Shown: positions 29,315 through 58,500 of the stretch, piece after piece
Position numbering within the stretch: the first letter of the stretch is position 1
How the letters are laid out: each line of letters opens with the position of its first letter
DNA from: Escherichia coli
Lineage (GTDB): Bacteria; Pseudomonadota; Gammaproteobacteria; Enterobacterales; Enterobacteriaceae
NCBI RefSeq assembly: GCF_003334405.1
Contig: NZ_QOWM01000010.1
Reading direction: 5' to 3' (one strand)
DNA: 64,000 bases
Position numbers and translations under genes: made by a program
Notes under the pieces: generated by a model
Told to the model about the DNA's origin: nothing
Seen by the model: the letters and a program-made list of their open reading frames with translations, nothing else
The model's database searches: none

Positions 29315-31246
29315 TCAAATGGGGCGGATACTTTCTTCATCCAGCTCCGCATCGAAGAACCGACGCAGGGTCTGAATATTATTATCCGCAATAATGGACT
29401 CGCGCGCCTGCGCAAGTTTTTCTTCGTATATCGCCTGACGCCACTCCAGCGGCGTACGCACCGCGGGATTATCATCTTCAACGATAGTCAGTTCAACCGT
29501 TGAACCTTTTAACATGCTCAACGCTTCAGCCAGTTTTTGCTGTGCACCGCGGTTGTTCAAATGCCGCTGAGAGGAGCGCAAATGCAGACATACTGCGTTG
29601 TCGCTCTCCTCTTTCCAGGCATTTAACGCCACCTGTTCGACCAGTTTTGGTAGCGAAAGTTGGCTCACCTGTGCCGCCCACGGGTCGCGCTCAATGGCTT
29701 CTGCCGCTAGCTTCGCCGCCAGTTCCGGCGTTTTTTCATGTTCCAGCGCTTTTTTCAGCGCCTTCGGCGTGGCGACCACTTCTTTTTGCTGCATCACCGG
29801 AGTGGTCGCCTTCCAGCGATACGCTTCTTTTTTGGCTGGCGCTTTTTCCAGCGCCGATGGCACCGGACGCGCCTGAACGCGATCGGTGACCGAAGCCAGT
29901 CTTTCCAGCGCAGCGTTATTCACCGGCCGCGCGCGGGTAGCGGCTGCCGGTTCACTCTTTTTTGCTTTGGTTGCTCCCTGCACGCGCTGCAACTGCTGGC
30001 GCGCCGCCAGCACCTGGCTGGTGGTTTCCGGGAGCGGTACAGTCGGTGCCTGCTGCGGCGCTGATTGCGGTTGCGGCGGCACCTGGGTTGGCGTCATTAC
30101 TGCCGTTGGCGCGACGGGTGCAAAGGACTGTCGTGGCACTTCTGGCTCAGGCAGCGGCATACGCGGATGGAATGCCAGCGCGCGCAGCAGCGTCATCTCA
30201 ACGCCCATGCGACGGTCCGGCGCATACGGTAATTCTTTGCGACCAATCAACAGCGTCTGATAGTAAAGCTGAATATCCGTCGGCGGTATGGTGCGCGCCA
30301 GTTCACGCATCCGCAGCTCGATGGCGGCCATGTCGTTGCCAAGTGCAGCAGGCGAAAGTTGTACCATCGCAATACGATGCAACAGGCCGAGCATTTCCAC
30401 CAGCAACGCTTCCCACTCGATACCACGGGCAGCGGCTTCATTAATCAGCGCCATTACGCGCTCGCCGTTGGCCTCGACCATCGCTTCAACCAGCGACAGC
30501 GCCTGATCGTCGTCAAGCGTACCCAGCATCGCACTGACCGCCTGGGTTGAAACCTGGCCGTCACCGCTGGCAATCGCCTGGTCGGTCAGACTTAAGGCAT
30601 CTCGCAGGCTGCCTTCAGCGGCGCGTGCCAGCAATTGCAGCGCCCGCGGCTCGTGAGCGATATGTTCTTCGTTGAGGATGTGCTCAAGCTGATGGCGAAT
30701 TTGCTCGACATCCAGCGCCTTGAGATGAAATTGCAGACAGCGTGACAAAATCGTCACCGGCAATTTCTGTGGATCGGTCGTCGCCAGCAGAAACTTAACG
30801 TGCTCCGGCGGCTCTTCAAGGGTTTTTAACAGTGCGTTAAAGCTGTGGCGCGACAGCATATGCACTTCGTCGATCAGATAAACTTTGAAACGACCACGCG
30901 CCGGAGCGTACTGGACGTTATCCAGCAGGTCGCGGGTATCTTCAACTTTGGTGCGCGAGGCGGCGTCGATTTCAATCAGATCGACAAAGCGCCCCTGCTC
31001 GATTTCACGACAGTTATCGCACACGCCGCACGGCGTCGCGGTAATGCCGGTTTCGCAGTTTAGCCCCTTCGCCAGCAGTCGGGCGATAGAGGTTTTTCCG
31101 ACGCCACGGGTGCCGGAAAAAAGATAAGCATGATGAATACGCCCTAACGACAAGCCGTTCGCCAGTGCGGTCAGCACATGTTCCTGGCCGACGACGTCAG
31201 CAAAGGTTTGTGGGCGCCATTTTCGGGCTAAGACCTGATAACTCAT
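29315..31246 (-). CDS. dnaX: DNA polymerase III subunits tau/gamma, 643 aa (tau)
   Basis: ORF track 643 aa; AAA+ clamp-loader motifs (GTRGVGKTS Walker A, zinc module CGVCDNC). Confidence 0.97.
   Translation of the reverse strand: MSYQVLARKWRPQTFADVVGQEHVLTALANGLSLGRIHHAYLFSGTRGVGKTSIARLLAKGLNCETGITATPCGVCDNCREIEQGRFVDLIEIDAASRTKVEDTRDLLDNVQYAPARGRFKVYLIDEVHMLSRHSFNALLKTLEEPPEHVKFLLATTDPQKLPVTILSRCLQFHLKALDVEQIRHQLEHILNEEHIAHEPRALQLLARAAEGSLRDALSLTDQAIASGDGQVSTQAVSAMLGTLDDDQALSLVEAMVEANGERVMALINEAAARGIEWEALLVEMLGLLHRIAMVQLSPAALGNDMAAIELRMRELARTIPPTDIQLYYQTLLIGRKELPYAPDRRMGVEMTLLRALAFHPRMPLPEPEVPRQSFAPVAPTAVMTPTQVPPQPQSAPQQAPTVPLPETTSQVLAARQQLQRVQGATKAKKSEPAAATRARPVNNAALERLASVTDRVQARPVPSALEKAPAKKEAYRWKATTPVMQQKEVVATPKALKKALEHEKTPELAAKLAAEAIERDPWAAQVSQLSLPKLVEQVALNAWKEESDNAVCLHLRSSQRHLNNRGAQQKLAEALSMLKGSTVELTIVEDDNPAVRTPLEWRQAIYEEKLAQARESIIADNNIQTLRRFFDAELDEESIRPI
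29957..29963 (-). other. Programmed -1 ribosomal frameshift site of dnaX (A AAA AAG), which yields the gamma subunit
   Basis: Minus strand reads GCAACCAAAGCAAAAAAGAGTGAA; the heptamer is in-frame at Lys429-Lys430 and the -1 frame reads AAA AAA GAG TGA (stop). Confidence 0.85.
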
Positions 31247-31374
31247 TGGCAGGCTCTGAAACGCTGGAAGGTGGATTCACGAAGGGGTAATGCTAACACA
31301 GCCCCGTCAGAACGGCGAGGCTGAATGCACATCTTGTGCTGTCCGTAGCGTGGGCAGCACAAGACTGGCGATAA

Positions 31375-31926
31375 TTAATGGCCCGGGAACGGGACAAGGC
31401 TGTAGCTGGTAATGCCCTGTTTTTCGAGACGCTGTTCGCCGCCGAGATCGAACAGGTTGATAATGAACGCAGCGTCAGCCACTTCACCACCCAGACGACG
31501 GATCAGTTTAACGGTCGCTTCGATAGTGCCGCCGGTTGCCAGCAGGTCGTCCACCACCAGAACTTTGTCGCCCGGTTTGATGGCATCAACGTGGATCTCC
31601 AGCTGATCGGTGCCGTATTCCAGGTCGTAAGTTTCACTGATGGTTTCACGCGGCAGTTTGCCCGGTTTACGGACCGGTACAAAGCCAACGCCCAGACCCA
31701 GAGCTACCGGAGCGCCAAACAAGAAGCCACGCGCTTCGGTGCCGACAACTTTGGTAATGCCCGCATTTTTGTAACGCTCAACCAGCAAGTCGATGCTGAG
31801 AGCGTAAGCTTTCGGGTCTTCCAGTAAGCTGGTGACATCGCGGAAAAGAATGCCGGGTTTTGGGTAGTCCTGAATGCTTTTGATGCTATTTTTGAGATAC
31901 TCAAGCTGCTGTGCAGTCGCGGTCAT
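31375..31926 (-). CDS. apt: Adenine phosphoribosyltransferase, 183 aa
   Basis: ORF track 31375..31980; trimmed to the ATG at 31926 ([13 protein letters not shown]...). PRPP-binding motif [13 protein letters not shown]. Confidence 0.95.
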
Positions 31927-32078
31927 AAGTGTATGCCTGCTTGTTACGGTGGTACTCACGGCGCGTTTTAAACGTATCAAAAGTAACAGTTGTTTAACCT
32001 TTGACCGCCTGCGCCTGTGCTCGAAAACGCCAGAATGTACTGGCTGTACGCAATAATTGCAACTGCGATTGTTGTGCT

Positions 32079-32456
32079 TCAGTGCTTTTCTTGCTTTTCA
32101 TCAATCACCGGAATTCGCCACATATAGAAAAGCAAACAGGCGAGAATTACCAGCAACATGATGCGCACCCATGGCATCTGGACGAACCACAGAGAAATGG
32201 CAAACGTGAGCAAAATAAGCAAAATCGCCCGCGGTTTGACGCCGCGCGGCATCGCATGATGTTTCTGCCAGAAACGTAGATAGCTGCCAAACCATGAGCG
32301 GTACAGCAACCAGGCGTGAAAGCGCGGGGAAGAACGGGCAAAGCACCAGGCCGCCAGCAGGATAAACGGCGTCGTCGGTAATACCGGTAATACCACGCCC
32401 AGCGTACCCAGCACTACCGCCAGCCAGCCAATGATGATTAAAATGATTCGTTGCAT
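32079..32456 (-). CDS. ybaN: DUF454-family inner membrane protein, 125 aa
   Basis: ORF track 125 aa; hydrophobic small membrane protein. Confidence 0.88.
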
Positions 32457-32525
32457 ATTGAGTGTTGTCAGCTTACAGAGTGGCTACTTTAGCATAACAA
32501 TTATCATTTTCATTGAGGTCTTATC

Positions 32526-33053
32526 GTGAAAACCGCCCTGCTGCTGGAAAAACTGGAAGGACAGCTCGCTACGCTGCGTCAGCGTTGTGCCCCGGTGTCA
32601 CAGTTCGCCACGCTAAGTGCTCGTTTCGACAGGCATCTTTTTCAGACTCGTGCGACAACACTACAGGCTTGTCTCGACGAGGCGGGCGATAATCTGGCTG
32701 CGCTTCGTCATGCAGTTGAGCAGCAACAGCTGCCGCAAGTGGCCTGGCTGGCGGAACATCTGGCGGCACAACTGGAAGCCATCGCGCGTGAAGCCTCCGC
32801 CTGGTCATTGCGCGAGTGGGACAGTGCACCACCGAAAATTGCCCGCTGGCAGCGTAAACGTATTCAGCATCAGGATTTTGAGCGGCGGCTACGTGAGATG
32901 GTTGCCGAACGCAGAGCCCGTCTGGCGCGGGTGACCGATCTCGTGGAACAGCAAACGCTGCATCGTGAAGTGGAAGCCTATGAAGCGCGCCTGGCACGCT
33001 GCCGCCATGCGCTGGAAAAAATCGAAAACAGGTTAGCGCGTTTAACCCGCTAG
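32526..33053 (+). CDS. priC: Primosomal replication protein N'' (PriC), 175 aa
   Basis: ORF track 175 aa; basic helical protein. Confidence 0.9.
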
Positions 33054-33066
33054 CAATGGAGAGAAT

Positions 33067-33228
33067 ATGTCACTGGAAAATGCCCCTGACGATGTCAAAC
33101 TGGCTGTCGATTTGATTGTGCTGCTGGAGGAAAATCAGATCCCTGCCAGTACCGTGCTGCGCGCGCTGGATATTGTAAAGCGTGATTATGAAAAGAAATT
33201 AACGCGCGATGATGAGGCGGAAAAGTGA
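33067..33228 (+). CDS. ybaM: Small protein YbaM (DUF2496), 53 aa
   Basis: Hand-translated: ATG at 33067 gives [53 protein letters not shown], stop at 33226..33228. Below the ORF-track size cutoff. Confidence 0.85.
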
Positions 33229-33280
33229 GAAATAAATGGGGTCGCTAAATGTCCCCTAAGGTTGCGGGCAAACGCAAAAC

Positions 33281-33380
33281 TGCCTGATGCGCTACGCTTA
33301 TCAGGCCTACACCGCTCCTGCAATATATTGAATTCTTGCGGTTTCGTAGGCCGGATAAGGCGGTCACGCCGCATCCGGCA
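33281..33380. repeat. BIME/REP element between ybaM and mscK
   Basis: tgcctgatgcgctacgcttatcaggcctac ... gtaggccggataaggcggtcacgccgcatccggca read directly. Confidence 0.85.
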
Positions 33381-33439
33381 TGAACAACGCGCACTTTGTT
33401 AGCAATCTCGGGGCAACTAAATGTTGCCCCCTTTCGTTT

Positions 33440-36400
33440 TTACCCTACCGCTGGCGTCGGGTCATCGCCTTTGTAGTCGCGTTTTACTTCCGTCACCTCA
33501 TCGCCCTTCTCGTTGTGCAGATGCACTTCAAGCTGGTTAAAGGCAATGTTGATGTCGTTTTCACGGCACAGCTGATCGATAGTACGGTTCAGCTCATCGA
33601 CAGTACGACTACGGTCACGCAGTTCACGCACATACAGACGCAGCTCATGATCCAACGTGCTGGCACCAAATGCCGTAAAGAAGACTTCCGGCATTGGTTC
33701 GTGCATCACCCTTGGGTGCTCAGTCGCCGCCTTCAGTAACACTTTACGCACTTTTTCCAGATCGGAGCCATAGGCCACGCCGAGACGGATCACCAGACGC
33801 GTAGTAGTGTCAGTCAACGACCAGTTGATCAGACGCTCGGTAACAAACGCTTTGTTCGGGATGATCACTTCTTTGCGATCGAAATCGGTAATCGTTGTCG
33901 CACGAATACGGATCTTACTTACCGTCCCCGAGAAGCTACCAATGGTTACCGTATCGCCAATACGCACCGGACGTTCGAATAGAATGATCAAACCGGAGAC
34001 GAAGTTACCGAAAATTTCTTGTAAACCAAAACCAAGACCTACGGATAATGCTGCGGCCAGCCACTGGAGTTTATCCCAAGAGACGCCCAGCGATCCGAAC
34101 ACCGTCATCGCACCAACAGCAATAATGATGTAGTTAAGGATGGTAGTAATGGCATACGACGCGCCCTGGCGCATATTCAGTCGCGAGAGCACCAGCACTT
34201 CCAGTAAACCAGGCAGGTTGCGAATCAACGCCCAGGCCACCATTGAGGCGATAATCGCAAACAACAGACTGCCCATGGTGACGTTTTTCACCACCGCAGC
34301 GCCAGCTTCAGTGCCGTTGTAATGCCAGAGCGTGATGCTGTCGAGATAGCTGAACACGGTGATCAAATCGGACCAAATTGCCCAGAACATGACACCGAAC
34401 AGCGCAAACATCAGCAACATGGTAATACGCAGCGTCTGCTGGTTAACTTGCTCCAGTGCAATGGTGGGTTCTTCCGGCGGTTCAGCACCTTCTGCGCCCT
34501 CTTTCACCAGATTCTGCCGACGCGCCAGCGCACGACGCCAGGCGATACGCCGCGCCGCTACGCTTAAGCCACGCAGTACCGTCTGGTACAGCAGGTTCCA
34601 GATGATCACCAGATAAACGGTTTCAATCCAGCGTCCTGCCAGACGCAGCGTAGTGTAGAAGTAGCCTGTAGCAGTCAGCACCATCAGCGCAATCGGGATT
34701 ATCGACAGCACGGTAATGGTGACCAGTCGCATGGTGTGCGACTCTTTATCACGCCAGCTTTCGCGGCACATCGGCCATACCAGGAAGGCAATCAGCAGCA
34801 GGTTGAAGAAAATCATCGCTTGCCCCAGCACATCATCCATCAGATGCAGCGGGGAAAGTTCTGCCACCACAGACCAGAAATGGATAGGCAGCAATGCGAG
34901 ACTGATGCGGACAATTTGCCGACGCCAGTGGCTGGTCTGCTGTTCCGGCATGCCGAAGTGACGTACGGCAACGCCGTTTTTCTCCAGTACCTTCCAGCAC
35001 AGGCCAAACACCAGCCAGAATATCGCCAGTTTTTTGCTGAACGACCATAGCAGTTCGCTGATGTTGAGCTGCATGGTCAACAGAATCAGGCCAACCGCGA
35101 GAATAATCAGGCACACCGGCAGCGCACGGATCAGGTCGATAAGGATCGCTTTTGGTGTGTTGAGCTGGCTGTCGTTACGCAGGGAACCCACAGCGGAAGC
35201 CAGTTTTTGTTGATACGCTTTCAGCCAGCCCAGACGCCAGTGGATCAGCCCGGCAATCAACAGCAGCGGCAAACCAGCGAGGAAAGCGATAAAAACGGCG
35301 GGCCAGGCTTTTTGCCAGTTCACCGTGATTTTCATCGACTTAAATTCATCTTTCAGGCTTTGCGGGAACGCTTTGATCCAGTCCCAGTCCATTGGACGGT
35401 TACTGTTCACCCAAAAGATTTGCTGAGTCAGGATGGATTTCAGGTTTTTCGACACACTCATTAACTGCTGCTGGTTGATTTGCAGGTTAATGGCCATCAT
35501 CAGCTGGTTACCCAACTGTTTGTTGAGTTGATCCAGCAATTCGCGACGCATATCAACCACTTGCAATAACGCATCGTGAACTTCGCTGTTGACTTCGTTG
35601 GTGTGACCTTCTTCCAGTTTGTTGACGAACGCATCGCTCTGGAAGAGTGCATCACGCTGCTGGTTAACTTCAAACTGTTCGAGACGCAAATCCGCGATGC
35701 GGTTGGTCATGTTTTCCAGTTCATCCGCCGAGGGCAGCGTTTGTTGTTGCTGGTAAAGGATACGAGACAACAGCAGGCTGCCCTTCAGGACGGCAATCTG
35801 CTCTTTAATATTGCGTTCCGATTGCAGCGCCCGCTCCAGCCAGTTTTTGACTTTAATGTTTTGCTGCATCAACTGATTACCGTTTTCAGTCGCGGTAATC
35901 AGACGCTGACTTAACTGCTGGTTAATTTCCAGTTCCTGCTTCACCAGCGGATTAGCCTGAATACGCGCGGCTTCATCCGGGGAGACGGCTTCCTGCGCCG
36001 TTTTTTCGGTTAAAGTCAGGCGCTTGCTGTTTACCGCTTCTTGCAACAGTTGTAACTGGTGCTCCAGACGAGCGCTGTTCGCCGTCACGTAATCACGTTG
36101 CTTTTGCAAGGTATCCTGCAAGACGGTGTTCCCTTCCAGGCTTTTACGCTGCTGGTCAATCTCCGCATTCAGCAACGCCTGCTGGGCCTGCATTAACACT
36201 TTCTGGCTGGGACGTAAGGCTGTCTCGCCGACATCAGTCCCATCCAGACGACTGCGAATTTGTTGCAGCTGCTGCGAAGCGTTATACATCGCATTTTGCA
36301 CGCGTTCGGGCTGCGTCTGTAACGAAACCAGCTGGCTGTTATAAGACGCCAGATCGTTTTGTGCGTTTTGCAAATCGTCCAGCGCCTGGGCAACGCGAGT

Positions 36401-36802
36401 TTCCAGCTGGCGCAACGACAGCGTGCTCAGAATTTTGCGCGTTTCTTCGTCGTTATCGACATCGCTAAGTGCTGTTAACGCCGCGGTCGCCTGGCGCATT
36501 TTTTCCGGCGCTTCAGCGACTTTTTGCCGTAGCTGAACTGTCTCTTCTTTTATGCGATCGATTTTATCGAGGGTGGCTAATGTATCTGTCAGATCCTGCT
36601 GCACCAGTTTGTCCTGAGCAGAAAGATCTTTTTGTTTATTTAGTGAGTCAAGTTGCGCCTGCAGGTCCGCTTTTGTCGGCAGATCACCATTCGATGACGC
36701 CCGCGCAAACGCCGTGTTCTGGCATAACAAGACAAAAACAAAAGCAATAAATGCTGAAAAAACAAAATGCCGTGATCGTTTGTAATACTGGAACATAGTC
36801 AT
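33440..36802 (-). CDS. mscK: Potassium-dependent mechanosensitive channel MscK, 1120 aa
   Basis: ORF track 1120 aa; signal peptide, long periplasmic coiled-coil region, multiple TM helices and a C-terminal MscS-like domain. Confidence 0.96.
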   Translation of the reverse strand: MTMFQYYKRSRHFVFSAFIAFVFVLLCQNTAFARASSNGDLPTKADLQAQLDSLNKQKDLSAQDKLVQQDLTDTLATLDKIDRIKEETVQLRQKVAEAPEKMRQATAALTALSDVDNDEETRKILSTLSLRQLETRVAQALDDLQNAQNDLASYNSQLVSLQTQPERVQNAMYNASQQLQQIRSRLDGTDVGETALRPSQKVLMQAQQALLNAEIDQQRKSLEGNTVLQDTLQKQRDYVTANSARLEHQLQLLQEAVNSKRLTLTEKTAQEAVSPDEAARIQANPLVKQELEINQQLSQRLITATENGNQLMQQNIKVKNWLERALQSERNIKEQIAVLKGSLLLSRILYQQQQTLPSADELENMTNRIADLRLEQFEVNQQRDALFQSDAFVNKLEEGHTNEVNSEVHDALLQVVDMRRELLDQLNKQLGNQLMMAINLQINQQQLMSVSKNLKSILTQQIFWVNSNRPMDWDWIKAFPQSLKDEFKSMKITVNWQKAWPAVFIAFLAGLPLLLIAGLIHWRLGWLKAYQQKLASAVGSLRNDSQLNTPKAILIDLIRALPVCLIILAVGLILLTMQLNISELLWSFSKKLAIFWLVFGLCWKVLEKNGVAVRHFGMPEQQTSHWRRQIVRISLALLPIHFWSVVAELSPLHLMDDVLGQAMIFFNLLLIAFLVWPMCRESWRDKESHTMRLVTITVLSIIPIALMVLTATGYFYTTLRLAGRWIETVYLVIIWNLLYQTVLRGLSVAARRIAWRRALARRQNLVKEGAEGAEPPEEPTIALEQVNQQTLRITMLLMFALFGVMFWAIWSDLITVFSYLDSITLWHYNGTEAGAAVVKNVTMGSLLFAIIASMVAWALIRNLPGLLEVLVLSRLNMRQGASYAITTILNYIIIAVGAMTVFGSLGVSWDKLQWLAAALSVGLGFGLQEIFGNFVSGLIILFERPVRIGDTVTIGSFSGTVSKIRIRATTITDFDRKEVIIPNKAFVTERLINWSLTDTTTRLVIRLGVAYGSDLEKVRKVLLKAATEHPRVMHEPMPEVFFTAFGASTLDHELRLYVRELRDRSRTVDELNRTIDQLCRENDINIAFNQLEVHLHNEKGDEVTEVKRDYKGDDPTPAVG

Positions 36803-36929
36803 GATGAATGAAGGTTTCTGAACCTGAAGAACGACCTGAAAAAGTCAAACCGCAAGAATATCACGACGCAGTGAACCAGAATAGCAACGACGAAAATGTC
36901 CAGGAAAAATCCTGGAGTCAGATTCAGGG

Positions 36930-37577
36930 TTATTCGTTAGTGGCAGGATTACGAAGCGTGGGGCACAGGAGATACATCTCCAGTAAGATGGCAACGTAAT
37001 CGCGGGCTTCTTTTTTAAGATCAAAAGATTGCGGGGCAAAGAGCCAGTTTTCCATCAGGCCGGAAATATAGCCGCGCATAATAATTGCTGCGCGACGCGT
37101 CATTAAATCCGCAGGCAACATTTTCGCTTCAATACAATGTTTTAACGTTTGTTCTATACGGTCATAACTTTCCAGACAGAGATTACGTTGTGCCTGTTGC
37201 ACAACAGCCATTTCTCCGACAAATTCGCATTTGTGGAATATAATCTCCATCAATAATCGACGCCGTTCTTCTGTCACCGTGGATTCAAGAACATGAATTA
37301 ATATCTCTCTTAATACTGAGAGTGGATCGCCAGGGAATTTTGCCTGATACTCAAGCTCTAGTTCACCAATATTGGATTCTGACAGTTCCCAGATCTCACT
37401 GAACAAATCCGACTTGTCTTTAAAATGCCAGTAGATTGCACCGCGCGTAACGCCAGCTGCTTTTGCAATCTCGCCCAGCGAGGTGGATGATACCCCCTGC
37501 TGTGAGAAAAGACGTAGAGCCACATCGAGGATGTGTTGGCGCGTTTCTTGCGCTTCTTGTTTGGTTTTTCGTGCCAT
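36930..37577 (-). CDS. acrR: TetR-family repressor of acrAB, 215 aa
   Basis: ORF track 215 aa; N-terminal TetR helix-turn-helix ([25 protein letters not shown]). Confidence 0.96.
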
Positions 37578-37605
37578 ATGTTCGTGAATTTACAGGCGTT
37601 AGATT

Positions 37606-37629
37606 TACATACATTTGTGAATGTATGTA
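37606..37629. promoter_or_regulatory. AcrR operator: 24-bp palindrome in the acrR-acrA divergent promoter region
   Basis: tacatacatttgtgaatgtatgta (inverted repeat TACATACATT / AATGTATGTA) read directly between the divergent acrR and acrA starts. Confidence 0.85.
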
Positions 37630-37718
37630 CCATAGCACGACGATAATATAAACGCAGCAATGGGTTTATTAACTTTTGACCATTGACCAATTTGAAATCG
37701 GACACTCGAGGTTTACAT

Positions 37719-38912
37719 ATGAACAAAAACAGAGGGTTTACGCCTCTGGCGGTCGTTCTGATGCTCTCAGGCAGCTTAGCCCTAACAGGATGTGACGACA
37801 AACAGGCCCAACAAGGTGGCCAGCAGATGCCCGCCGTTGGCGTAGTAACAGTCAAAACTGAACCTCTGCAGATCACAACCGAGCTTCCGGGTCGCACCAG
37901 TGCCTACCGGATCGCAGAAGTTCGTCCTCAAGTTAGCGGGATTATCCTGAAGCGTAATTTCAAAGAAGGTAGCGACATCGAAGCAGGTGTCTCTCTCTAT
38001 CAGATTGATCCTGCGACCTATCAGGCGACATACGACAGTGCGAAAGGTGATCTGGCGAAAGCCCAGGCTGCAGCCAATATCGCGCAATTGACGGTGAATC
38101 GTTATCAGAAACTGCTCGGTACTCAGTACATCAGTAAGCAAGAGTACGATCAGGCTCTGGCTGATGCGCAACAGGCGAATGCTGCGGTAACTGCGGCGAA
38201 AGCTGCCGTTGAAACTGCGCGGATCAATCTGGCTTACACCAAAGTCACCTCTCCGATTAGCGGTCGCATTGGTAAGTCGAACGTGACGGAAGGCGCATTG
38301 GTACAGAACGGTCAGGCGACTGCGCTGGCAACCGTGCAGCAACTTGATCCGATCTACGTTGATGTGACCCAGTCCAGCAACGACTTCCTGCGCCTGAAAC
38401 AGGAACTGGCGAATGGCACGCTGAAACAAGAGAACGGCAAAGCCAAAGTGTCACTGATCACCAGTGACGGCATTAAGTTCCCGCAGGACGGTACGCTGGA
38501 ATTCTCTGACGTTACCGTTGATCAGACCACTGGGTCTATCACCCTACGCGCTATCTTCCCGAACCCGGATCACACTCTGCTGCCGGGTATGTTCGTGCGC
38601 GCACGTCTGGAAGAAGGGCTTAATCCAAACGCTATTTTAGTCCCGCAACAGGGCGTAACCCGTACGCCGCGTGGCGATGCCACCGTACTGGTAGTTGGCG
38701 CGGATGACAAAGTGGAAACCCGTCCGATCGTTGCAAGCCAGGCTATTGGCGATAAGTGGCTGGTGACAGAAGGTCTGAAAGCAGGCGATCGCGTAGTAAT
38801 AAGTGGGCTGCAGAAAGTGCGTCCTGGTGTCCAGGTAAAAGCACAAGAAGTTACCGCTGATAATAACCAGCAAGCCGCAAGCGGTGCTCAGCCTGAACAG
38901 TCCAAGTCTTAA
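37719..38912 (+). CDS. acrA: RND efflux periplasmic adaptor lipoprotein AcrA, 397 aa
   Basis: ORF track 37683..38912; trimmed to the ATG at 37719 (MNKNRGFTPLAVVLMLSGSLALTGC, lipobox LTGC). Confidence 0.97.
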   Translation: MNKNRGFTPLAVVLMLSGSLALTGCDDKQAQQGGQQMPAVGVVTVKTEPLQITTELPGRTSAYRIAEVRPQVSGIILKRNFKEGSDIEAGVSLYQIDPATYQATYDSAKGDLAKAQAAANIAQLTVNRYQKLLGTQYISKQEYDQALADAQQANAAVTAAKAAVETARINLAYTKVTSPISGRIGKSNVTEGALVQNGQATALATVQQLDPIYVDVTQSSNDFLRLKQELANGTLKQENGKAKVSLITSDGIKFPQDGTLEFSDVTVDQTTGSITLRAIFPNPDHTLLPGMFVRARLEEGLNPNAILVPQQGVTRTPRGDATVLVVGADDKVETRPIVASQAIGDKWLVTEGLKAGDRVVISGLQKVRPGVQVKAQEVTADNNQQAASGAQPEQSKS

Positions 38913-38931
38913 CTTAAACAGGAGCCGTTAA

Positions 38932-42084
<3,153 letters not shown>

Positions 42085-42629
42085 TACAACGTGTAATCAC
42101 TAAGGCCGCGTAAGCGGCCTTTTTTATGCATAACCTACGAACATTAAGGAGTAATTGAACCACCAACTCAGGATCTCATACGAAAACCAGTATTAACCAC
42201 GGATAAAATTCATAAAAAATACTGATTGTTAGTTAATTTATATTAAGTAGCGCTAATAGATTTAATAATCCATAATCATTTAGAGGCTATTCTTAATTAT
42301 TTGCGGTAATTCTTTATTCATTCCTCGGTTATTACGTCATATTCAGAGCAATCCTGGTATTAGTGTCACCAATTTCATCTGGCGATAATCCTGAAATGTT
42401 ATGAATAGTTCGAGCAAACTGCTTTTACCTGCTGCGGGTTAGTGCTAGTATGAAAAAGTGAGTCCTGTCCCGCTTCCTTCCTAATTGTAATTTTTCGTAA
42501 TAATGCGATGAAAACCTGCAAAGAGTGGCTTATAGTTAAGCTAACAAACGAGAGGGCAAGTCCAGGTCAGTAAGTTTTTTCCATCCCGAAAGGTGTCCGT
42601 TAGTTCAACCGCTAAGAAGGGGACGCGTT

Positions 42630-43004
42630 ATGGATGAATACTCACCCAAAAGACATGATATCGCACAGCTTAAGTTTCTCTGTGAAACCCTGTATCATGA
42701 CTGCCTTGCAAACCTTGAAGAAAGCAATCATGGCTGGGTAAACGACCCAACCTCGGCGATCAACCTCCAGTTGAATGAACTGATTGAGCATATTGCGACC
42801 TTCGCACTTAATTACAAAATTAAGTATAATGAAGACAATAAGCTCATTGAGCAGATCGACGAATATCTGGATGACACCTTTATGTTGTTCAGTAGTTATG
42901 GTATTAATATGCAGGATCTTCAGAAATGGCGGAAGTCAGGTAATCGACTATTCCGTTGTTTTGTCAATGCGACGAAAGAGAATCCTGCGAGTTTATCTTG
43001 TTAG
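42630..43004 (+). CDS. tomB: Hha toxicity modulator TomB (YbaJ), 124 aa
   Basis: ORF track 124 aa; located immediately upstream of hha on the same strand. Confidence 0.92.
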
Positions 43005-43029
43005 AATTATTACAACCATAGGTAGAAGT

Positions 43030-43248
43030 ATGTCCGAAAAACCTTTAACGAAAACCGATTATTTAATGCGTTTACGTCGTTGCCAGACAATTGACACGCT
43101 GGAGCGTGTTATCGAGAAAAATAAATACGAATTATCAGATAATGAACTGGCGGTATTTTACTCAGCCGCAGATCACCGCCTCGCCGAATTGACCATGAAT
43201 AAACTGTACGACAAGATCCCTTCCTCAGTATGGAAATTTATTCGCTAA
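43030..43248 (+). CDS. hha: Hemolysin expression-modulating protein Hha (H-NS co-regulator), 72 aa
   Basis: ATG at 43030 gives [72 protein letters not shown]; embedded in the longer ORF-track entry 42784..43248. Confidence 0.95.
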
Positions 43249-43325
43249 TAAATAATTCGCTTTCGGAGCTATAACCGGCTGTTTATTAAGAATTTTATAC
43301 TTTTTCGCCATGAAGACATACCCTA

Positions 43326-43341
43326 TGTGATCTTTATCACA
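43326..43341. promoter_or_regulatory. Perfect CRP-consensus palindrome (TGTGA-N6-TCACA) upstream of maa
   Basis: tgtga-tcttta-tcaca read directly, about 80 bp upstream of the maa start codon. Confidence 0.55.
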
Positions 43342-43419
43342 CAGATGTAATGGGAACGTTCTCTTCACTGACTTTTCGTCTTACTGTGTTGCCGCATTTT
43401 CAGCAACCGGAGGTCAGTA

Positions 43420-43971
43420 ATGAGCACAGAAAAAGAAAAGATGATTGCTGGTGAGTTGTATCGCTCGGCAGATGAGACGTTATCTCGCGATCGCCTGCGC
43501 GCTCGTCAGCTTATTCACCGATACAATCATTCCCTGGCGGAAGAGCACACATTACGCCAGCAAATTCTCGCTGATCTATTCGGTCAGGTGACAGAGGCTT
43601 ATATTGAGCCAACGTTTCGCTGTGACTATGGCTATAACATTTTTCTCGGTAATAATTTTTTCGCCAACTTCGATTGCGTGATGCTTGATGTCTGCCCTAT
43701 TCGCATCGGTGATAACTGTATGTTGGCACCAGGCGTTCATATCTACACGGCAACACATCCCATCGACCCTGTAGCACGTAATAGCGGTGCTGAACTGGGG
43801 AAACCCGTCACCATCGGTAATAACGTCTGGATTGGCGGACGCGCGGTCATTAACCCTGGTGTGACCATTGGTGATAACGTCGTGGTAGCCTCAGGTGCAG
43901 TTGTCACAAAAGATGTCCCGGACAACGTTGTCGTGGGCGGTAATCCAGCCAGAATAATTAAAAAATTGTAA
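43420..43971 (+). CDS. maa: Maltose O-acetyltransferase (left-handed beta-helix hexapeptide acyltransferase), 183 aa
   Basis: ORF track 183 aa; hexapeptide repeats ([46 protein letters not shown]). Confidence 0.95.
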
Positions 43972-44714: not shown

Positions 44715-46271
44715 ATGCTGGTGAGAACACGACATCTGGTCGGCCTTATTTCGGGAGTACTGATTCTTTCAGTATTGCTGCCTGTCGGCTTAAGCATCTG
44801 GCTGGCCCATCAGCAGGTAGAAACATCGTTTATTGAAGAGCTGGATACCTATTCCTCCCGCGTCGCTATTCGAGCCAATAAGGTGGCGACACAAGGGAAA
44901 GATGCGCTGCAGGAGCTGGAAAGATGGCAAGGCGCTGCCTGTAGCGAAGCCCATCTCATGGAAATGCGTCGGGTATCTTACAGTTATCGCTATATTCAGG
45001 AAGTGGCTTATATCGATAACAACGTTCCCCAGTGTTCGTCTCTGGAGCATGAAAGTCCGCCCGATACCTTCCCCGAGCCAGGTAAAATTTCGAAAGATGG
45101 TTATCGTGTCTGGTTAACATCGCATAACGATTTAGGCATTATCCGTTACATGGTCGCCATGGGAACGGCACATTATGTCGTCATGATCGACCCCGCTTCC
45201 TTTATTGATGTCATTCCCTATAGCTCATGGCAAATTGATGCCGCCATTATTGGCAATGCCCATAACGTTGTCATAACCAGCAGCGATGAAATTGCTCAGG
45301 GAATTATTACCAGGCTACAAAAAACACCCGGTGAGCATATCGAAAATAATGGAATCATTTACGATATCCTGCCCTTACCGGAGATGAATATTTCGATCAT
45401 CACATGGGCTTCAACGAAAATGTTGCAGAAAGGCTGGCATCGGCAAGTCTTTATTTGGTTACCGCTCGGGTTGGTGATTGGCCTGCTGGCAGCGATGTTT
45501 GTGCTGCGTATTTTGCGCCGTATTCAGTCACCGCATCATCGGCTGCAGGATGCTATCGAAAATCGTGATATTTGCGTGCACTATCAGCCGATTGTCTCCT
45601 TAGCCAATGGCAAAATTGTCGGTGCTGAGGCACTGGCGCGCTGGCCGCAGACAGACGGTAGTTGGTTGTCACCAGATAGTTTTATTCCGCTGGCACAGCA
45701 AACGGGCCTTTCTGAGCCATTGACGCTACTGATTATAAGAAGCGTCTTTGAAGATATGGGCGACTGGCTGCGTCAGCATCCACAGCAGCATATTTCGATC
45801 AATCTTGAATCCCCCGTGCTCACCTCGGAAAAAATCCCGCAATTGCTGCGTGACATGATCAATCACTATCAGGTTAATCCCAGACAGATCGCGCTTGAAC
45901 TCACTGAACGCGAGTTTGCCGATCCGAAAACCAGCGCCCCGATAATTTCTCGCTACCGGGAGGCGGGCCATGAAATTTATCTTGATGATTTTGGTACGGG
46001 GTATTCAAGTTTAAGTTATTTACAGGATCTGGATGTCGACATTCTGAAGATCGATAAATCTTTCGTTGATGCGCTGGAATATAAAAATGTCACGCCGCAT
46101 ATCATCGAAATGGCAAAAACACTGAAACTGAAAATGGTAGCGGAGGGAATCGAAACCAGTAAACAAGAAGAGTGGTTACGCCAGCATGGCGTGCACTACG
46201 GTCAGGGCTGGCTCTACAGCAAGGCATTACCGAAAGAAGATTTCTTACGCTGGGCCGAGCAACATTTGTGA
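44715..46271 (+). CDS. pdeB: CSS-motif sensor domain / EAL-domain c-di-GMP phosphodiesterase, about 516-518 aa
   Basis: ORF track 518 aa; N-terminal TM, periplasmic sensor segment with conserved cysteines, second TM and a C-terminal EAL domain (EALARWP ... DDFGTGYSSLSYL). The exact start codon is uncertain by a couple of codons. Confidence 0.88.
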   Translation: MLVRTRHLVGLISGVLILSVLLPVGLSIWLAHQQVETSFIEELDTYSSRVAIRANKVATQGKDALQELERWQGAACSEAHLMEMRRVSYSYRYIQEVAYIDNNVPQCSSLEHESPPDTFPEPGKISKDGYRVWLTSHNDLGIIRYMVAMGTAHYVVMIDPASFIDVIPYSSWQIDAAIIGNAHNVVITSSDEIAQGIITRLQKTPGEHIENNGIIYDILPLPEMNISIITWASTKMLQKGWHRQVFIWLPLGLVIGLLAAMFVLRILRRIQSPHHRLQDAIENRDICVHYQPIVSLANGKIVGAEALARWPQTDGSWLSPDSFIPLAQQTGLSEPLTLLIIRSVFEDMGDWLRQHPQQHISINLESPVLTSEKIPQLLRDMINHYQVNPRQIALELTEREFADPKTSAPIISRYREAGHEIYLDDFGTGYSSLSYLQDLDVDILKIDKSFVDALEYKNVTPHIIEMAKTLKLKMVAEGIETSKQEEWLRQHGVHYGQGWLYSKALPKEDFLRWAEQHL

Positions 46272-46312
46272 ATTTTTGGGCTGACGGCACGCCGCACAGC
46301 CCGTCACGCTAC

Positions 46313-46666
46313 CTATTCGTCGATGATTGACTCGAATCCGCCATAGATCATTCGCTTGCCGTCAAACGGCATGGACTCGCCGAACTCTTTCATCCGTGGG
46401 TCCGACATCATCTTTTGATTAGCAGCGTCGCGGACCTCTTTTGAAGGGTATTCAATCCAGCTAAAGACAACCTCTTCATTCTCTTCCGCTTTCACCGCCA
46501 TACGAAAATCGGTCACTTTGCCATCCGGTACATCGCTGGCCCAGCATTCGACAATACGAAGCGCGCCAAACTCTTTAAACAATGGCGCAGCCTTAGCGGC
46601 CATTTCCCGATAGGCATCCTTTTTATCGGCAGGAACGGCAACCACAAAACCATCAACATACTTCAT
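46313..46666 (-). CDS. ybaA: DUF1428-family protein, 117 aa
   Basis: ORF track 117 aa. Confidence 0.88.
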   Translation of the reverse strand: MKYVDGFVVAVPADKKDAYREMAAKAAPLFKEFGALRIVECWASDVPDGKVTDFRMAVKAEENEEVVFSWIEYPSKEVRDAANQKMMSDPRMKEFGESMPFDGKRMIYGGFESIIDE

Positions 46667-46776
46667 CAGACATACCTCCGAAGCGTACTGCGCAGCCAGA
46701 CAATTCTTGCGACGTCAGTTGTGGTTAAAGTTTAGCCATGTTGGGATTTTTTGACGAAACGGTGGGAGGCAGAAAT

Positions 46777-46890
46777 GGGTGGGGGCCCTGCCAGCTACAT
46801 CCCGGCACACGCGTCATCTGCCTTGGCTGCTTCCTTCCGGACCTGACCTGGTAAACAGAGTAGCGTTGCGGGAGAACCAACAGAGCCCCC
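46777..46890 (-). ncRNA. ffs: 4.5S RNA, the signal recognition particle RNA (114 nt)
   Basis: Reverse complement of 46777..46890 matches, base for base, the 4.5S RNA sequence as I recall it (GGGGGCTCTGTTGGTTCTCCCGCAACGC...GGCAGGGCCCCCACCC), including the conserved domain IV GGAA tetraloop region. ORF-track entries overlapping it are spurious. Confidence 0.95.
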
Positions 46891-46966
46891 ATTGAGAGCG
46901 TTGAGAACCAACGCGCAGGCGCATTATCACTGCTGCCCCGGCTAATTGCAACCCATCGCGTGCCAG

Positions 46967-47356
46967 ATGCTGGTTTCTTGCGCAATGCGACTTCACTCGG
47001 GCGTTTTTCCAGATTATGCTGAAAAATTACCTCAGGAAGAAAAGATGGAAAAAGAAGATTCATTTCCCCAACGCGTCTGGCAAATCGTCGCCGCTATTCC
47101 CGAAGGCTATGTCACCACTTACGGTGATGTGGCGAAACTGGCGGGATCGCCCCGCGCCGCGCGCCAGGTGGGCGGTGTGTTAAAGCGTCTCCCTGAAGGC
47201 AGCACCTTACCCTGGCACCGGGTGGTTAATCGCCACGGCACAATTTCGCTAACCGGACCGGATTTACAGCGTCAGCGACAGGCATTACTGGCAGAAGGTG
47301 TGATGGTATCGGGAAGCGGGCAAATCGACTTGCAGCGTTATCGCTGGAACTACTAA
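46967..47356 (+). CDS. atl: Alkyltransferase-like protein (ATL; O6-alkylguanine DNA-binding, non-catalytic), 129 aa
   Basis: ORF track 46946..47356; start set at the ATG at 46967 (MLVSCAMRL...). Methyltransferase-like DNA-binding fold lacking the catalytic cysteine context (PWHRVVN). Start is uncertain. Confidence 0.82.
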   Translation: MLVSCAMRLHSGVFPDYAEKLPQEEKMEKEDSFPQRVWQIVAAIPEGYVTTYGDVAKLAGSPRAARQVGGVLKRLPEGSTLPWHRVVNRHGTISLTGPDLQRQRQALLAEGVMVSGSGQIDLQRYRWNY

Positions 47357-47386
47357 CCCTCTCCGGGCGGAGAGGGTTAACGTCGC

Positions 47387-47959
47387 TTAATATTGCGTAG
47401 GAGCTGGAACTGCCGAAGACGGATTCACCTGAGTTGGTGAAGTCGAAGGTACGGTAGTCGTTGCGCCACCGCTGGCCTGAACCGGCACGGCGGTTTGCTG
47501 TACCGGCACCAATGTCAGGTCGGCTTTAGTTCCGCCCTGGTTGATCACCGGCTGAACGGTATCGGTGATAAATACCAGTTTGTCATTCACGGTAATCGCC
47601 GCACTCAACAGAATACGCGCGTTCGGCTGAACATCTGCCGGGTTAAATGGCAGAACAAAGCTGAATGGTGACTGTTTACCTTCAGTACGCACCGCTTTCT
47701 GCGCCAGCACTTTTGACGGTGCATCGGCTAACGACGCGTCAGAAAGTGTCACGGTCAGCACAGCATCAGGCGGCAGTGCGACTTTCTGACGGATCCAGAC
47801 GGTACCGGAGACATTCGGTTGCTGGATAGCTGGTTGTTGTGTTGCTGAAATAGACGTATTTGCAGCCGGTGCTGGCGTCTGAATATCCGCGCTTTTATCT
47901 GCGCAAGCCGCCAACGCAATCGCAACCGCTAAACCACTGGCCATGTGCACGAGTTTCAT
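47387..47959 (-). CDS. ybaY: Lipoprotein YbaY, 190 aa
   Basis: ORF track 190 aa; signal peptide with lipobox LAACA and a Pro/Thr/Ala-rich low-complexity C-terminus. Confidence 0.88.
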   Translation of the reverse strand: MKLVHMASGLAVAIALAACADKSADIQTPAPAANTSISATQQPAIQQPNVSGTVWIRQKVALPPDAVLTVTLSDASLADAPSKVLAQKAVRTEGKQSPFSFVLPFNPADVQPNARILLSAAITVNDKLVFITDTVQPVINQGGTKADLTLVPVQQTAVPVQASGGATTTVPSTSPTQVNPSSAVPAPTQY

Positions 47960-48176
47960 TCATTTCTCCTTATTATCAATGCACCAGCGGGCTAACTTTC
48001 CTCGCCGGAAGAGTGGTTAACAAAATAGTAACGTCAACAAGTGTGGCACACATCACGCATTTCTGCCTGTAATTAGCCCGTAATTCAGACCATTGCACCC
48101 ATCGGACCAGTAGCAAATTTGCGTTATACTCAACTCACTTTGGCTTGCTGCGGCAGCTTTGTTACTGGAGAGTTAT

Positions 48177-49037
48177 ATGAGTCAGGCGCTAAAAAATTTA
48201 CTGACATTGTTAAATCTGGAAAAAATTGAGGAAGGACTCTTTCGCGGCCAGAGTGAAGATTTAGGTTTACGCCAGGTGTTTGGCGGCCAGGTCGTGGGTC
48301 AGGCCTTGTATGCTGCAAAAGAGACCGTCCCTGAAGAGCGGCTGGTACATTCGTTTCACAGCTACTTTCTTCGCCCTGGCGATAGTAAGAAGCCGATTAT
48401 TTATGATGTCGAAACGCTGCGTGACGGTAACAGCTTCAGCGCCCGCCGGGTTGCTGCTATTCAAAACGGCAAACCGATTTTTTATATGACTGCCTCTTTC
48501 CAGGCACCAGAAGCGGGTTTCGAACATCAAAAAACAATGCCGTCCGCGCCAGCGCCTGATGGCCTACCTTCGGAAACGCAAATCGCCCAATCGCTGGCGC
48601 ACCTGCTGCCGCCAGTGCTGAAAGATAAATTCATCTGCGATCGTCCGCTGGAAGTCCGTCCGGTGGAGTTTCATAACCCACTGAAAGGTCACGTCGCAGA
48701 ACCACATCGTCAGGTGTGGATCCGCGCAAATGGTAGCGTGCCGGATGACCTGCGCGTTCATCAGTATCTGCTCGGTTACGCTTCTGATCTTAACTTCCTG
48801 CCGGTAGCTCTACAGCCGCACGGCATCGGTTTTCTCGAACCGGGGATTCAGATTGCCACCATTGACCATTCCATGTGGTTCCATCGCCCGTTTAATTTGA
48901 ATGAATGGCTGCTGTATAGCGTGGAGAGCACCTCGGCGTCCAGCGCACGTGGCTTTGTGCGCGGTGAGTTTTATACCCAAGACGGCGTACTGGTTGCCTC
49001 GACCGTTCAGGAAGGGGTGATGCGTAATCACAATTAA
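48177..49037 (+). CDS. tesB: Acyl-CoA thioesterase II, 286 aa
   Basis: ORF track 48159..49037; trimmed to the ATG at 48177 ([30 protein letters not shown]...). Confidence 0.95.
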
Positions 49038-49085
49038 AAAAATAGCCGGAGGTGAAAACCGTCCGGCTGTTTTTTGCAGTGCTTG

Positions 49086-50372
49086 TTACGCGTTATAGGC
49101 ATTCTCGCCGTGGCTGTTGACATCCAGCCCTTCTCGCTCCTGCTCTTCCGGTACACGCAGACCAACCGTCAGATCCGCCAATTTGTAGCCGATAAATGCC
49201 ACAACACCGGACCAGACGATCGTAATGGCGATGCTTTCCAGCTGTACCAGCAACTGATGGCCCATCGTCACACCTTCAGCGAAGCCCACGCCGCCCAGCG
49301 AGCTGGCGGCAAAAATCCCGGTCATGATACAGCCGACAATGCCACAAACGCCGTGCACACCGAAGACATCGCAGGGATCATCCACCCGCAGCAAGCGTTT
49401 GAGCATGGTAACGCCCCACAAGCCCGCCAGACCAGCTACCACGCCGATAATCAACGCGCCGCCAACCCCAATGTAGCCGCAGGCTGGCGTCACGCCGACC
49501 AGGCCGGCAATCGCGCCAGAACACGCCCCCAGCAGTGAAGGCTTACCACGCAGCGCCCATTCACCGAAGATCCAGCCAAGAATTGCCGCCGCCGTTGCGA
49601 CCACAGTATTCACAAATGCCAGTGCCGCGATTTCATTCGCCGTGCCCGCTGACCCGGCGTTAAAGCCAAACCAACCGATATAGAGAATGGCAGTCCCGGT
49701 GAAGACCATCGGCAGGTTGTGCGGTTTAAACGCCTCTTTACCGAAGCCCACGCGTTTTCCTATCAGATACGCGCCCACCAGACCGGCGATTGCGGCGTTA
49801 ATGTGCACCACGGTGCCACCCGCGAAATCCAGCGCACCGTGAGAAGCCAGCAAACCACCGCCCCACACCATATGCGCAATCGGAATGTAAGAGAGCGTCA
49901 GCCATACCACCACGAAAATCAACACAGCTGAGAAGCGGATTCGTTCCGCCAGCGCCCCAACTATCAAGCCGACGGTAATGCAGGCAAACGATCCCTGAAA
50001 CGCCACGTGGATATACTGATAAATGCTGCCCATCACCGCCGTCAGTTCGATGTTTTTCAGCATCAACCAGTTAATGTTGCCGAAGAAGTTGTTGCCCTCA
50101 CCAAACGCCAGCGAGTAACCGTAAACCACCCAGAGAATACAGACCAGTGCAAATGTCACCGTCACCTGCGTCAGCATCGACAGCACGTTTTTGCCGCGAA
50201 TCAACCCACCGTAAAACAGGGCAATCCCCGGAATAGTCATAAACAGCACCAGCGCAGTACAAATCATCATAAACGCATTGTCGGCTTTATCGGCCACCGC
50301 AGGTGCAGCCATTACCAGTCCCGGAAGCATCGCCAGTGAAGCAAGCCCAGTTTTTATCGTCGCTATCTTCAT
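49086..50372 (-). CDS. amtB: Ammonium channel AmtB, 428 aa
   Basis: ORF track 428 aa; signal peptide and 11-TM Amt/MEP fold; lies immediately downstream of glnK on the same strand. Confidence 0.97.
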   Translation of the reverse strand: MKIATIKTGLASLAMLPGLVMAAPAVADKADNAFMMICTALVLFMTIPGIALFYGGLIRGKNVLSMLTQVTVTFALVCILWVVYGYSLAFGEGNNFFGNINWLMLKNIELTAVMGSIYQYIHVAFQGSFACITVGLIVGALAERIRFSAVLIFVVVWLTLSYIPIAHMVWGGGLLASHGALDFAGGTVVHINAAIAGLVGAYLIGKRVGFGKEAFKPHNLPMVFTGTAILYIGWFGFNAGSAGTANEIAALAFVNTVVATAAAILGWIFGEWALRGKPSLLGACSGAIAGLVGVTPACGYIGVGGALIIGVVAGLAGLWGVTMLKRLLRVDDPCDVFGVHGVCGIVGCIMTGIFAASSLGGVGFAEGVTMGHQLLVQLESIAITIVWSGVVAFIGYKLADLTVGLRVPEEQEREGLDVNSHGENAYNA

Positions 50373-50401
50373 TTTTCGTTCCTGTTGCTGTGTGCCAGAG
50401 A

Positions 50402-50740
50402 TTACAGCGCCGCTTCGTCGGCTTCGCCGGTACGAATACGAATGACGCGTTGCAATTCAGCGACGAAGATTTTGCCGTCGCCAATTTTTCCGGTGTAAGC
50501 CGCCTTACTGACGATATCGATCACTTCATCGAGTTGGTCATCAGCAATCGCCACATCAATTTTTACTTTTGGCAGGAAATTGACGCTGTATTCCGCCCCC
50601 CGGTACAGCTCGGCATGCCCTTTCTGACGCCCGAAACCTTTCACTTCGGTGACGGTCAGGCCCTGAATACCAATGGAAGATAACGCTTCACGAACGTCTT
50701 CCAGCTTGAATGGTTTGATTATCACGGTCACCAGCTTCAT
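50402..50740 (-). CDS. glnK: PII nitrogen regulatory protein GlnK, 112 aa
   Basis: ORF track 50402..50878; trimmed to the ATG at 50740 (MKLVTVIIKPFKLEDVREAL...). T-loop uridylylation region RYRGAEY-like (LYRGAEYSV). Confidence 0.96.
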   Translation of the reverse strand: MKLVTVIIKPFKLEDVREALSSIGIQGLTVTEVKGFGRQKGHAELYRGAEYSVNFLPKVKIDVAIADDQLDEVIDIVSKAAYTGKIGDGKIFVAELQRVIRIRTGEADEAAL

Positions 50741-50792
50741 AGATCCCCTCCGGTCAGAATTCGGTAATGGTTCTGCTACACGAAGAAGGTAT

Positions 50793-50808
50793 TGCAAGCG
50801 GTGTGCCA
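50793..50808 (-). promoter_or_regulatory. sigma54 (-24/-12) promoter of glnK-amtB
   Basis: Minus strand reads TGGCAC-accgc-TTGCA (consensus TGGCAC-N5-TTGCA), about 55 bp upstream of the glnK ATG. TGCAC-containing dyads further upstream (about 50860..50905) are candidate NtrC sites. Confidence 0.8.
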
Positions 50809-50920
50809 GAAATGAAAAACGAGAAAGAGAGCAGGAAGTTAAGAAGTTTGAAAATGAAAACGCACTATGACAGTGCACAGTGCGTTACATTTTTGCACCA
50901 ACGATGAAATATTGCGCTAT

Positions 50921-54467
<3,547 letters not shown>

Positions 54468-54496
54468 GCGTTGTGTCCTGACCTGATTCTGGATAT

Positions 54497-54955
54497 TTAT
54501 TCGATGGGTAAAGAAGTGGTGTATTTAATCTGTTCCATCGCGAAGCTGGAAGTGACGTCCGACAGCCCCGGCACGCTGTTTACCAGACGCTTATAAAACT
54601 CGTCGTAGCGTTTCATGTCGGCAACCTGGACGCGCATCAGATAATCGTATTCACCAGCCATGCGCCAGAACCCCAGCACTTCTGGCATTTCGGTAACCAC
54701 CGTGACAAAGCGGCAATACCATTCGCTGCTGTGATGTTGCGTTTTTATCAGCACAAAAGCGGTCAGGCCGAGGCCTATTTTTTCCGGATCCAGCAGGGCG
54801 ACTTTGCCGATAAGGATACCGTCGTCCTCCAGCCGTTTCAGGCGCTTCCAGCAAGGGGTGGTTGTCAGATTAACGGCTTCAGCCAGTGCCTGCAAAGAGA
54901 GGGTGCAATCCTGCTGCAGTAAGGCCAGCAGCTTACGGTCAATTTTATCTAACAT
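54497..54955 (-). CDS. decR: Lrp/AsnC-family transcriptional regulator, 152 aa
   Basis: ORF track 54497..55183; trimmed to the ATG at 54953..54955 ([31 protein letters not shown]..., HTH plus RAM domain). Confidence 0.9.
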
Positions 54956-55107
54956 AGCCCTTCCACAGAGAATTTTTTTCTCTTTTAATTTTATTTTAAA
55001 GGTGAAATCACGACAATTTATTCTGTGCGGTTTAAACACCACGGCACAAAATGACAAATTCAACGCAAAAAAAACCGGGCAATTGCCCGGTGCTGGAAGG
55101 GATCTCG

Positions 55108-55926: not shown

Positions 55927-56025
55927 TTCTTTCTCCACTCTGTGACACGGTTAATGGTGATTGAGTATCACCTGATATATACGGAAGTAATAGTGAATAG
56001 TTAAATAATATTGTTCCGGGTTTAT

Positions 56026-58486: not shown

Positions 58487-58500
58487 TTATTCCGGGTGTC

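Follow-up and report, generated by a model that had tools for sequence, protein, structure and literature searches.

An intact AcrR operator in the acrR–acrAB divergent control region of an Escherichia coli strain, in its K-12 reference form

Introduction

The chief intrinsic multidrug efflux pump in Escherichia coli is AcrAB–TolC. Losing repression by AcrR is known to be one step towards resistance, which makes checking the acrR locus reasonable in strain typing. The 24 bp AcrR operator of K-12 is credited to Su, Rutherford and Yu (2007) by PMC10597343. The acrR and acrAB transcription units point away from each other, with acrR 141 bp upstream, and AcrR represses both acrAB and its own gene (PMC9769551). 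The locus studied here raises two questions: is the palindrome in the gap between acrR and acrA the operator of AcrR, and does its being intact tell us how efflux is regulated in this strain? In what follows, the window is the whole 64 kb stretch of E. coli DNA that was analysed, and positions are counted from its first letter.

Results and discussion

The acrR–acrAB locus and its K-12 counterpart

The genes, the gap between them and the palindrome are arranged as follows.

36930–37577, minus strand: acrR, TetR-family repressor of 215 residues, reference allele (open reading frame, translation and K-12 annotation at the same place)
37578–37718: acrR–acrA intergenic region, 141 bp, 35% G+C, from the acrR start codon (37577) to the acrA ATG (37719)
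37606–37629: AcrR operator, a perfect 10-4-10 inverted repeat with arm TACATACATT (37606–37615), spacer TGTG (37616–37619) and arm AATGTATGTA (37620–37629)
37719–38912, plus strand: acrA, periplasmic adaptor of 397 residues, reference allele
38935–42084, plus strand: acrB, RND permease of 1049 residues, reference allele, downstream of acrA

This is the layout of an AcrR–acrAB divergon, in which the repressor gene is divergent from an operon encoding an RND adaptor and permease across a 141 bp gap. An earlier note on this DNA had placed an acrR–acrAB divergent control region at 37578–37718, which are exactly the bounds of the gap, and the genes on either side are confirmed. AcrR scores 419.3 bits against the NCBIfam AcrR equivalog NF007949 (cut-off 271) and 178.7 bits, below the cut-off of 274, against the model of its paralogue, the acrEF/envCD regulator; AcrA and AcrB reach 885 bits (cut-off 765) and 2422 bits (cut-off 2150) against their own NCBIfam equivalogs. 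In AcrR, the N-terminal helix-turn-helix DNA-binding domain TetR_N (Pfam PF00440) covers residues 16–62 (E = 1.9e-19) and the C-terminal ligand-binding domain TetR_C_2 (Pfam PF08361) residues 84–202 (E = 3e-53). A PDB sequence search (E ≤ 1e-10) found the E. coli AcrR sequence in two entries, the crystal structures 2qop and 3bcg, which match the protein over its full length (E = 1.6e-141). We take both to be DNA-free structures, so that the two-dimer binding mode considered below rests on biochemistry and analogy. Residues T5, L34, R45 and E67, known from resistance or ligand studies (E67 being a ligand residue), are all wild type.

Many E. coli chromosomes, that of K-12 MG1655 among them, match the 861 bp segment 36900–37760 at 100% identity; the MG1655 annotation gives the gene order mscK, acrR, acrA, acrB. 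Over a wider span, 30900–43760, there are 0 mismatches to MG1655 (NZ_CP032667.1) in 12 861 bp. The reference alleles are therefore present throughout, in the three genes acrR, acrA and acrB as well as in the operator, the marbox and the leader, and the locus does not differ from the K-12 divergon at any point. The earlier note had named an alignment to the reference acrR–acrA region and acrR as the check on its reading; this alignment to MG1655 showed acrR, acrA, acrB and the intergenic region to be free of IS elements, frameshifts and substitutions.

The window as a whole is collinear with MG1655 and carries 14 single-base differences, all outside 24823–47649 (positions 4701, 15083, 18273, 21878, 22990, 24822, 47650, 48566, 49503, 51498, 52105, 55879, 57992 and 60173). 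Eleven are transitions and three transversions; seven are synonymous, one is intergenic and six are non-synonymous (YbaQ D13A, UshA Y51C, Gsk A75V, YbaY S104P, MdlB G402D and QueC E68K). To go by bit scores, neither 1–25000 nor 45000–64000 has an identical counterpart in any complete E. coli genome, the best hits having about five and four mismatches, respectively. Since the synonymous and non-synonymous counts are nearly equal, the strain looks more like a mutagenised or mutator relative of K-12 than a product of natural divergence. The 5.2 kb acrR–acrB span has 0 changes where about 1.1 would be expected, a difference that is not significant.

The palindrome matches the published AcrR binding site

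The 24-mer TACATACATTTGTGAATGTATGTA has a single exact match in the 64 kb window, at 37606–37629, and no other AcrR-operator-like site occurs in the window at up to three mismatches. It was never matched in 100 dinucleotide-preserving shuffles, and by our own arithmetic a perfect 10+10 inverted repeat with a 4 nt spacer is expected about 0.06 times per 64 kb of random sequence. The same 24-mer is known as the AcrR site, described as two 10 bp inverted repeats separated by a 4 bp spacer and proposed to bind a dimer of dimers (PMC10597343). The experimentally defined operator is thus present in the acrR–acrA intergenic region without a mismatch to the sequence given in that paper and, as far as sequence identity goes, the palindrome is the published AcrR binding site. 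The intact 24 bp operator announced by the earlier note is borne out: it is exact, unique, and identical to both the published site and K-12. We put the probability that this is the canonical E. coli acrR–acrAB divergent control region in its K-12 reference form at about 97%. The feature is an already known, textbook regulatory site, and nothing in the evidence contradicts the assignment.

Candidate promoters, marbox and leader elements

Around the operator, the following elements were located.

37604–37633, plus strand: candidate acrAB sigma-70 promoter, −35 TTTACA (37604–37609), 18 nt spacer, −10 TACCAT (37628–37633), 9/12 matches in a consensus scan
37643–37672, minus strand: candidate acrR promoter from the consensus scan only, −35 TTAATA (37672–37667), −10 TATATT (37650–37645) or TATTAT (37648–37643)
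37558–37577, minus strand: marbox, the activator site of MarA, SoxS and Rob, ATGGCACGAAAAACCAAACA, which coincides with coding nucleotides 1–20 of acrR
37698–37711, plus strand: acrA leader elements, TCGGA (37698–37702) and Shine–Dalgarno GAGG (37708–37711)

The two hexamers of the promoter-like match for acrAB straddle the operator, and transcription of acrAB would start near 37640, which we take to agree with the acrAp start in RegulonDB. Leftward transcription from the candidate acrR promoter would cross the operator. The marbox has been placed in the first 20 nt of acrR and is required for the up-regulation of acrAB when AcrR is inactivated (PMC11642870). Judged by the presence of its sequence, it stands upstream of the promoter as in the promoters of the mar/sox/rob regulon. 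The 20 bp element lies 26 bp upstream of the candidate −35, on the strand opposite acrA; what sets this locus apart from other mar/sox/rob promoters is that the divergent repressor gene contains the marbox within its coding sequence, so that whole-gene deletions of acrR also remove the activator site. The gap between the two genes, which the earlier note had marked as the control region, is therefore too narrow, as the marbox lies beyond it.

The marbox covers acrR codon 5 (ACC, 37563–37565, wild type here), and the resistance-associated substitutions T5N and T5I of experimental evolution (PMC11702832) change marbox bases. Since the marbox lies in acrR codons 1–7, the effect of substitutions there, T5N/T5I for example, may come in part from altered activator binding in cis and not from the protein alone.

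In the acrA leader, TCGGA at 37698–37702 is the same sequence as the secondary CsrA site of the Salmonella leader, and the primary site, AAGGA in Salmonella, reads CGAGG in E. coli at the Shine–Dalgarno sequence. The CsrA-bound acrAB leader of Salmonella combines a primary motif of the type A(N)GGA with a secondary GGA. The Salmonella sites were defined in the 141 bp acrAB region of that organism (PMC5727465).

Two further candidate sites were considered and set aside. An inverted repeat (37569–37577 and 37632–37640) shares GCACGA with the marbox and might have marked a second one, but by our reading its downstream copy misfits the rest of the consensus; the conservation of 37632–37640 is better explained by the −10 and the start region. 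A direct repeat of 18 nt (37575–37592 and 37608–37625, 78% identity) resembles the operator centre and overlaps the acrR start codon, as a second AcrR site might. It is probably due to chance, because 37578–37603 is poorly conserved, being variable in 85 Enterobacterales loci, and because there is no second site within three mismatches.

Conservation of the operator and of its repressor

We scanned one genome per species for the exact 10 bp arms with any 4 nt spacer between them and obtained at least 120 loci, lineages with altered arms falling outside these counts. In 113 of the 120 matches listed, the palindrome adjoins the start of a gene for an AcrR homologue, which is read away from it. 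Between palindrome and AcrR, a gap of 28 nt is the most frequent (61 loci among the matches listed); the window has this gap too, and an AcrA homologue stands on the other side of the palindrome in most of the AcrR-adjoining loci. The spacer takes 25 different sequences among the matches listed, which points to constraint on the arms but not on the bases of the spacer. A spacer of TATG in place of TGTG, with unchanged arms, is seen in the E. coli genomes SCPM-O-B-8794 and E69 (L057 and L078) and in E. albertii (L006). Four of the 120 matches, from Thomasclavelia, Clostridium, Pseudidiomarina and Parendozoicomonas, show no detectable AcrR-like gene in the stretch retrieved; we estimate that matches of this kind in AT-rich genomes come close to chance expectation.

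Among the matches listed, 20 loci keep the exact arms beside an AcrR that is only 35–45% identical (among them L004, L011, L013, L017–L019, L021, L031, L047, L061, L068, L076, L077, L084, L095, L097, L104 and L107). They come from Aeromonas, Acidovorax, Ottowia, Comamonas, Polaromonas, Oxalobacteraceae, Herbaspirillum, Silvimonas and others. In these 20 loci, residues 1–62 of AcrR are 64% identical, compared with 27% for the rest of the protein, and the motif TRGA(I/V)YWHF of TetR_N (residues 44–52) is conserved but for one I/V change. At the level of sequence comparison, this joint conservation of the DNA-binding head and of the site is independent support for the repressor–operator assignment.

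Within the control region, an alignment of 85 Enterobacterales loci brings out four conserved blocks: the marbox, the TTTA of the −35, CCATAGCAC after the palindrome, and a distal leader block, TCGGACACTCGAGGTTTAC, which is conserved across the Enterobacterales. The conservation of the marbox in these loci is strong but confounded by coding constraint.

Alternative readings of the palindrome

Could the inverted repeat have arisen by chance in AT-rich intergenic DNA and have no function? The 35% G+C of the region would favour such repeats, and the four cross-species matches with no detectable AcrR-like gene nearby may be chance matches themselves. The absence of any match in the shuffles, the constant position beside AcrR homologues in nearly all the matches listed, and the published binding (PMC10597343; PMC9769551) effectively refute this idea, to which we attach next to no weight. 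An inverted repeat could also act mainly as RNA. Transcription of acrR from the candidate promoter at 37672–37643 would place the palindrome in the 5′ leader of its mRNA, where it forms a 10 bp stem in both the minimum-energy and the centroid structures, and such a hairpin might affect stability or translation. The fold of the 78 nt acrR leader is, however, no better than that of shuffled sequences (z = −1.39; 13 of 200 shuffles as good), nor is that of the acrA leader (z = −0.19), and neither leader matches an Rfam family at E ≤ 1. Moreover, the arms are kept base for base in distant lineages, with no compensatory change, which fits read-out by a protein, and direct binding of AcrR has been published in the same two papers. 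We therefore rejected the RNA-structure reading, which we consider very improbable.

A different possibility is that AcrR is one of several occupants of the site, with its paralogue AcrS/EnvR and possibly OmpR also acting at the palindrome. The score of AcrR against the acrEF/envCD regulator model indicates that a close paralogue exists. AcrS represses acrAB. An OmpR site overlapping the AcrR site has been proposed in Yersinia enterocolitica (PMC4403819). We give shared occupancy a minority chance; both acrS and ompR lie outside the window, and the proposal would add to binding by AcrR rather than compete with it. The operator of AcrR in its K-12 form remains the reading that we retain.

A model for the control of acrAB

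Two dimers of AcrR, a TetR-family repressor, reportedly bind the 10-4-10 palindrome at 37606–37629. This site fills the space between the −35 and −10 hexamers proposed for acrAB, overlaps both, and stands just downstream of the candidate acrR promoter, so that bound AcrR would block RNA polymerase on acrAB and hinder the transcription of acrR itself; the operator overlaps the candidate promoter hexamers in the first case and lies in the path of acrR transcription in the second. What we infer here is steric occlusion and the precise positions of promoters and starts. The C-terminal domain of AcrR would take up pump substrates or metabolites (ethidium, putrescine, cadaverine, spermidine), on which AcrR would leave the DNA, and the main activation would come from MarA, SoxS or Rob at the marbox inside acrR. 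In EMSA experiments with the acrAB promoter, all four ligands release AcrR in vitro, and AcrR-dependent induction of acrAB has been described for ethidium, putrescine and cadaverine (PMC9769551). The sequence and gene identities, the geometry and the comparative conservation on which this model draws come from the present analysis, while binding, ligands and marbox function are taken from the papers cited.

AcrR has relatives with a similar architecture. Like AcrR, the repressors of the TetR–tetO, QacR–IR1, TtgR–ttgABC and MtrR–mtrCDE systems combine an N-terminal TetR_N domain with a C-terminal ligand pocket, TtgR and MtrR being the nearest solved relatives (E = 1e-44 to 1e-32). The TetR/QacR-type pairs also share with the acrR locus a repressor gene divergent from the efflux operon, a palindrome over the promoter, which for acrAB is a candidate one, and release by drugs. 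With 24 bp and two proposed dimers, the AcrR operator resembles that of QacR, which holds two dimers, and differs from tetO, which is 15 bp long and binds a single dimer. AcrR would also differ from the repressors of these pairs in its role: with activation coming from MarA, SoxS or Rob, it acts as a modulator rather than as the main switch.

What the intact operator says about efflux and resistance

The earlier note had called mutations in this operator or in acrR a common route to multidrug resistance. This holds for acrR, since efflux-mediated resistance often arises through mutations in that gene (PMC11702832; PMC3514110), and not for the operator. Morbidostat evolution gave four intergenic events overlapping the AcrR site with the gyrase inhibitor GP6 and one with ciprofloxacin, against 22 and 34 events, respectively, inside acrR, comprising IS insertions, frameshifts and T5N/T5I (PMC11702832).

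Of 5424 complete E. coli genomes, 5420 have the 141 bp intergenic region at 99% identity or more, and the exact 40 bp around the operator are present in 5382 of 5426 (about 99%), many clinical and ESBL strains included. A 28 nt exact word around the operator is absent from about 35 of the 5426 genomes, some of which could be accounted for by a spacer variant such as TATG. About 41 complete genomes lack any one place covering at least 80% of the 861 bp query, a rough lower bound on gross interruptions of acrR, as the count uses identity bands only and some IS1 insertions are joined in the search output and so hidden.

Some individual genomes deserve mention. IS1 lies inside acrR in several complete genomes (H1–H4 in the search with 36900–37760), and two records carry a plasmid copy of the acrR–acrA region. 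In NZ_CP148461.1 (H70, a chicken isolate), an IS481-family transposase is annotated under or next to the match to 37599–37718, and this match ends at about 37599, between the marbox and the −35/operator. To judge from these positions, a natural insertion may have split the activator site from the promoter here.

From the intact operator, the earlier note had concluded that efflux regulation in this strain is wild type. This does not follow: the operator is near-invariant, in clinical and ESBL isolates as well, and so does not distinguish strains, and marRAB, soxRS, rob and the lon promoter are all outside the 64 kb window. MarA, SoxS or Rob, acting through the marbox, is needed for the up-regulation of acrAB (PMC11642870), and a nonsense mutation in marR had a larger effect than acrR::IS5, the two being synergistic (PMC3514110). 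What can be said from this DNA is that the local regulation alone should be wild type, that is, of the reference type. At the window edge (62096–64000, minus strand) stand the 3′ 1905 nt of lon, without a difference from K-12; the 5′ part of the gene, like its promoter, falls outside. MarA and SoxS are degraded by Lon. During the evolution with GP6, a mutation appeared upstream of lon (PMC11702832).

Conclusion

The reference sequence found at this locus brings no new biology for the strain itself, whose efflux status cannot be read from it without marR, soxR, rob and lon. Where the comparison between species may lead further is in the pairing of site and repressor. The operator arms and the helix-turn-helix head of AcrR, with its TRGA(I/V)YWHF motif, may form a frozen recognition module shared by the regulators of RND pumps in Enterobacterales, Aeromonas and several Betaproteobacteria (Comamonadaceae, Oxalobacteraceae and Silvimonas), even though their ligand-binding domains have drifted apart to about 27% identity; taken jointly with the cis reading of T5N/T5I, this is a tentative proposal, and one that we would not expect to hold in full. 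If it is true, distant AcrR-type repressors should bind each other's operators, and cross-regulation would then be expected after horizontal transfer.
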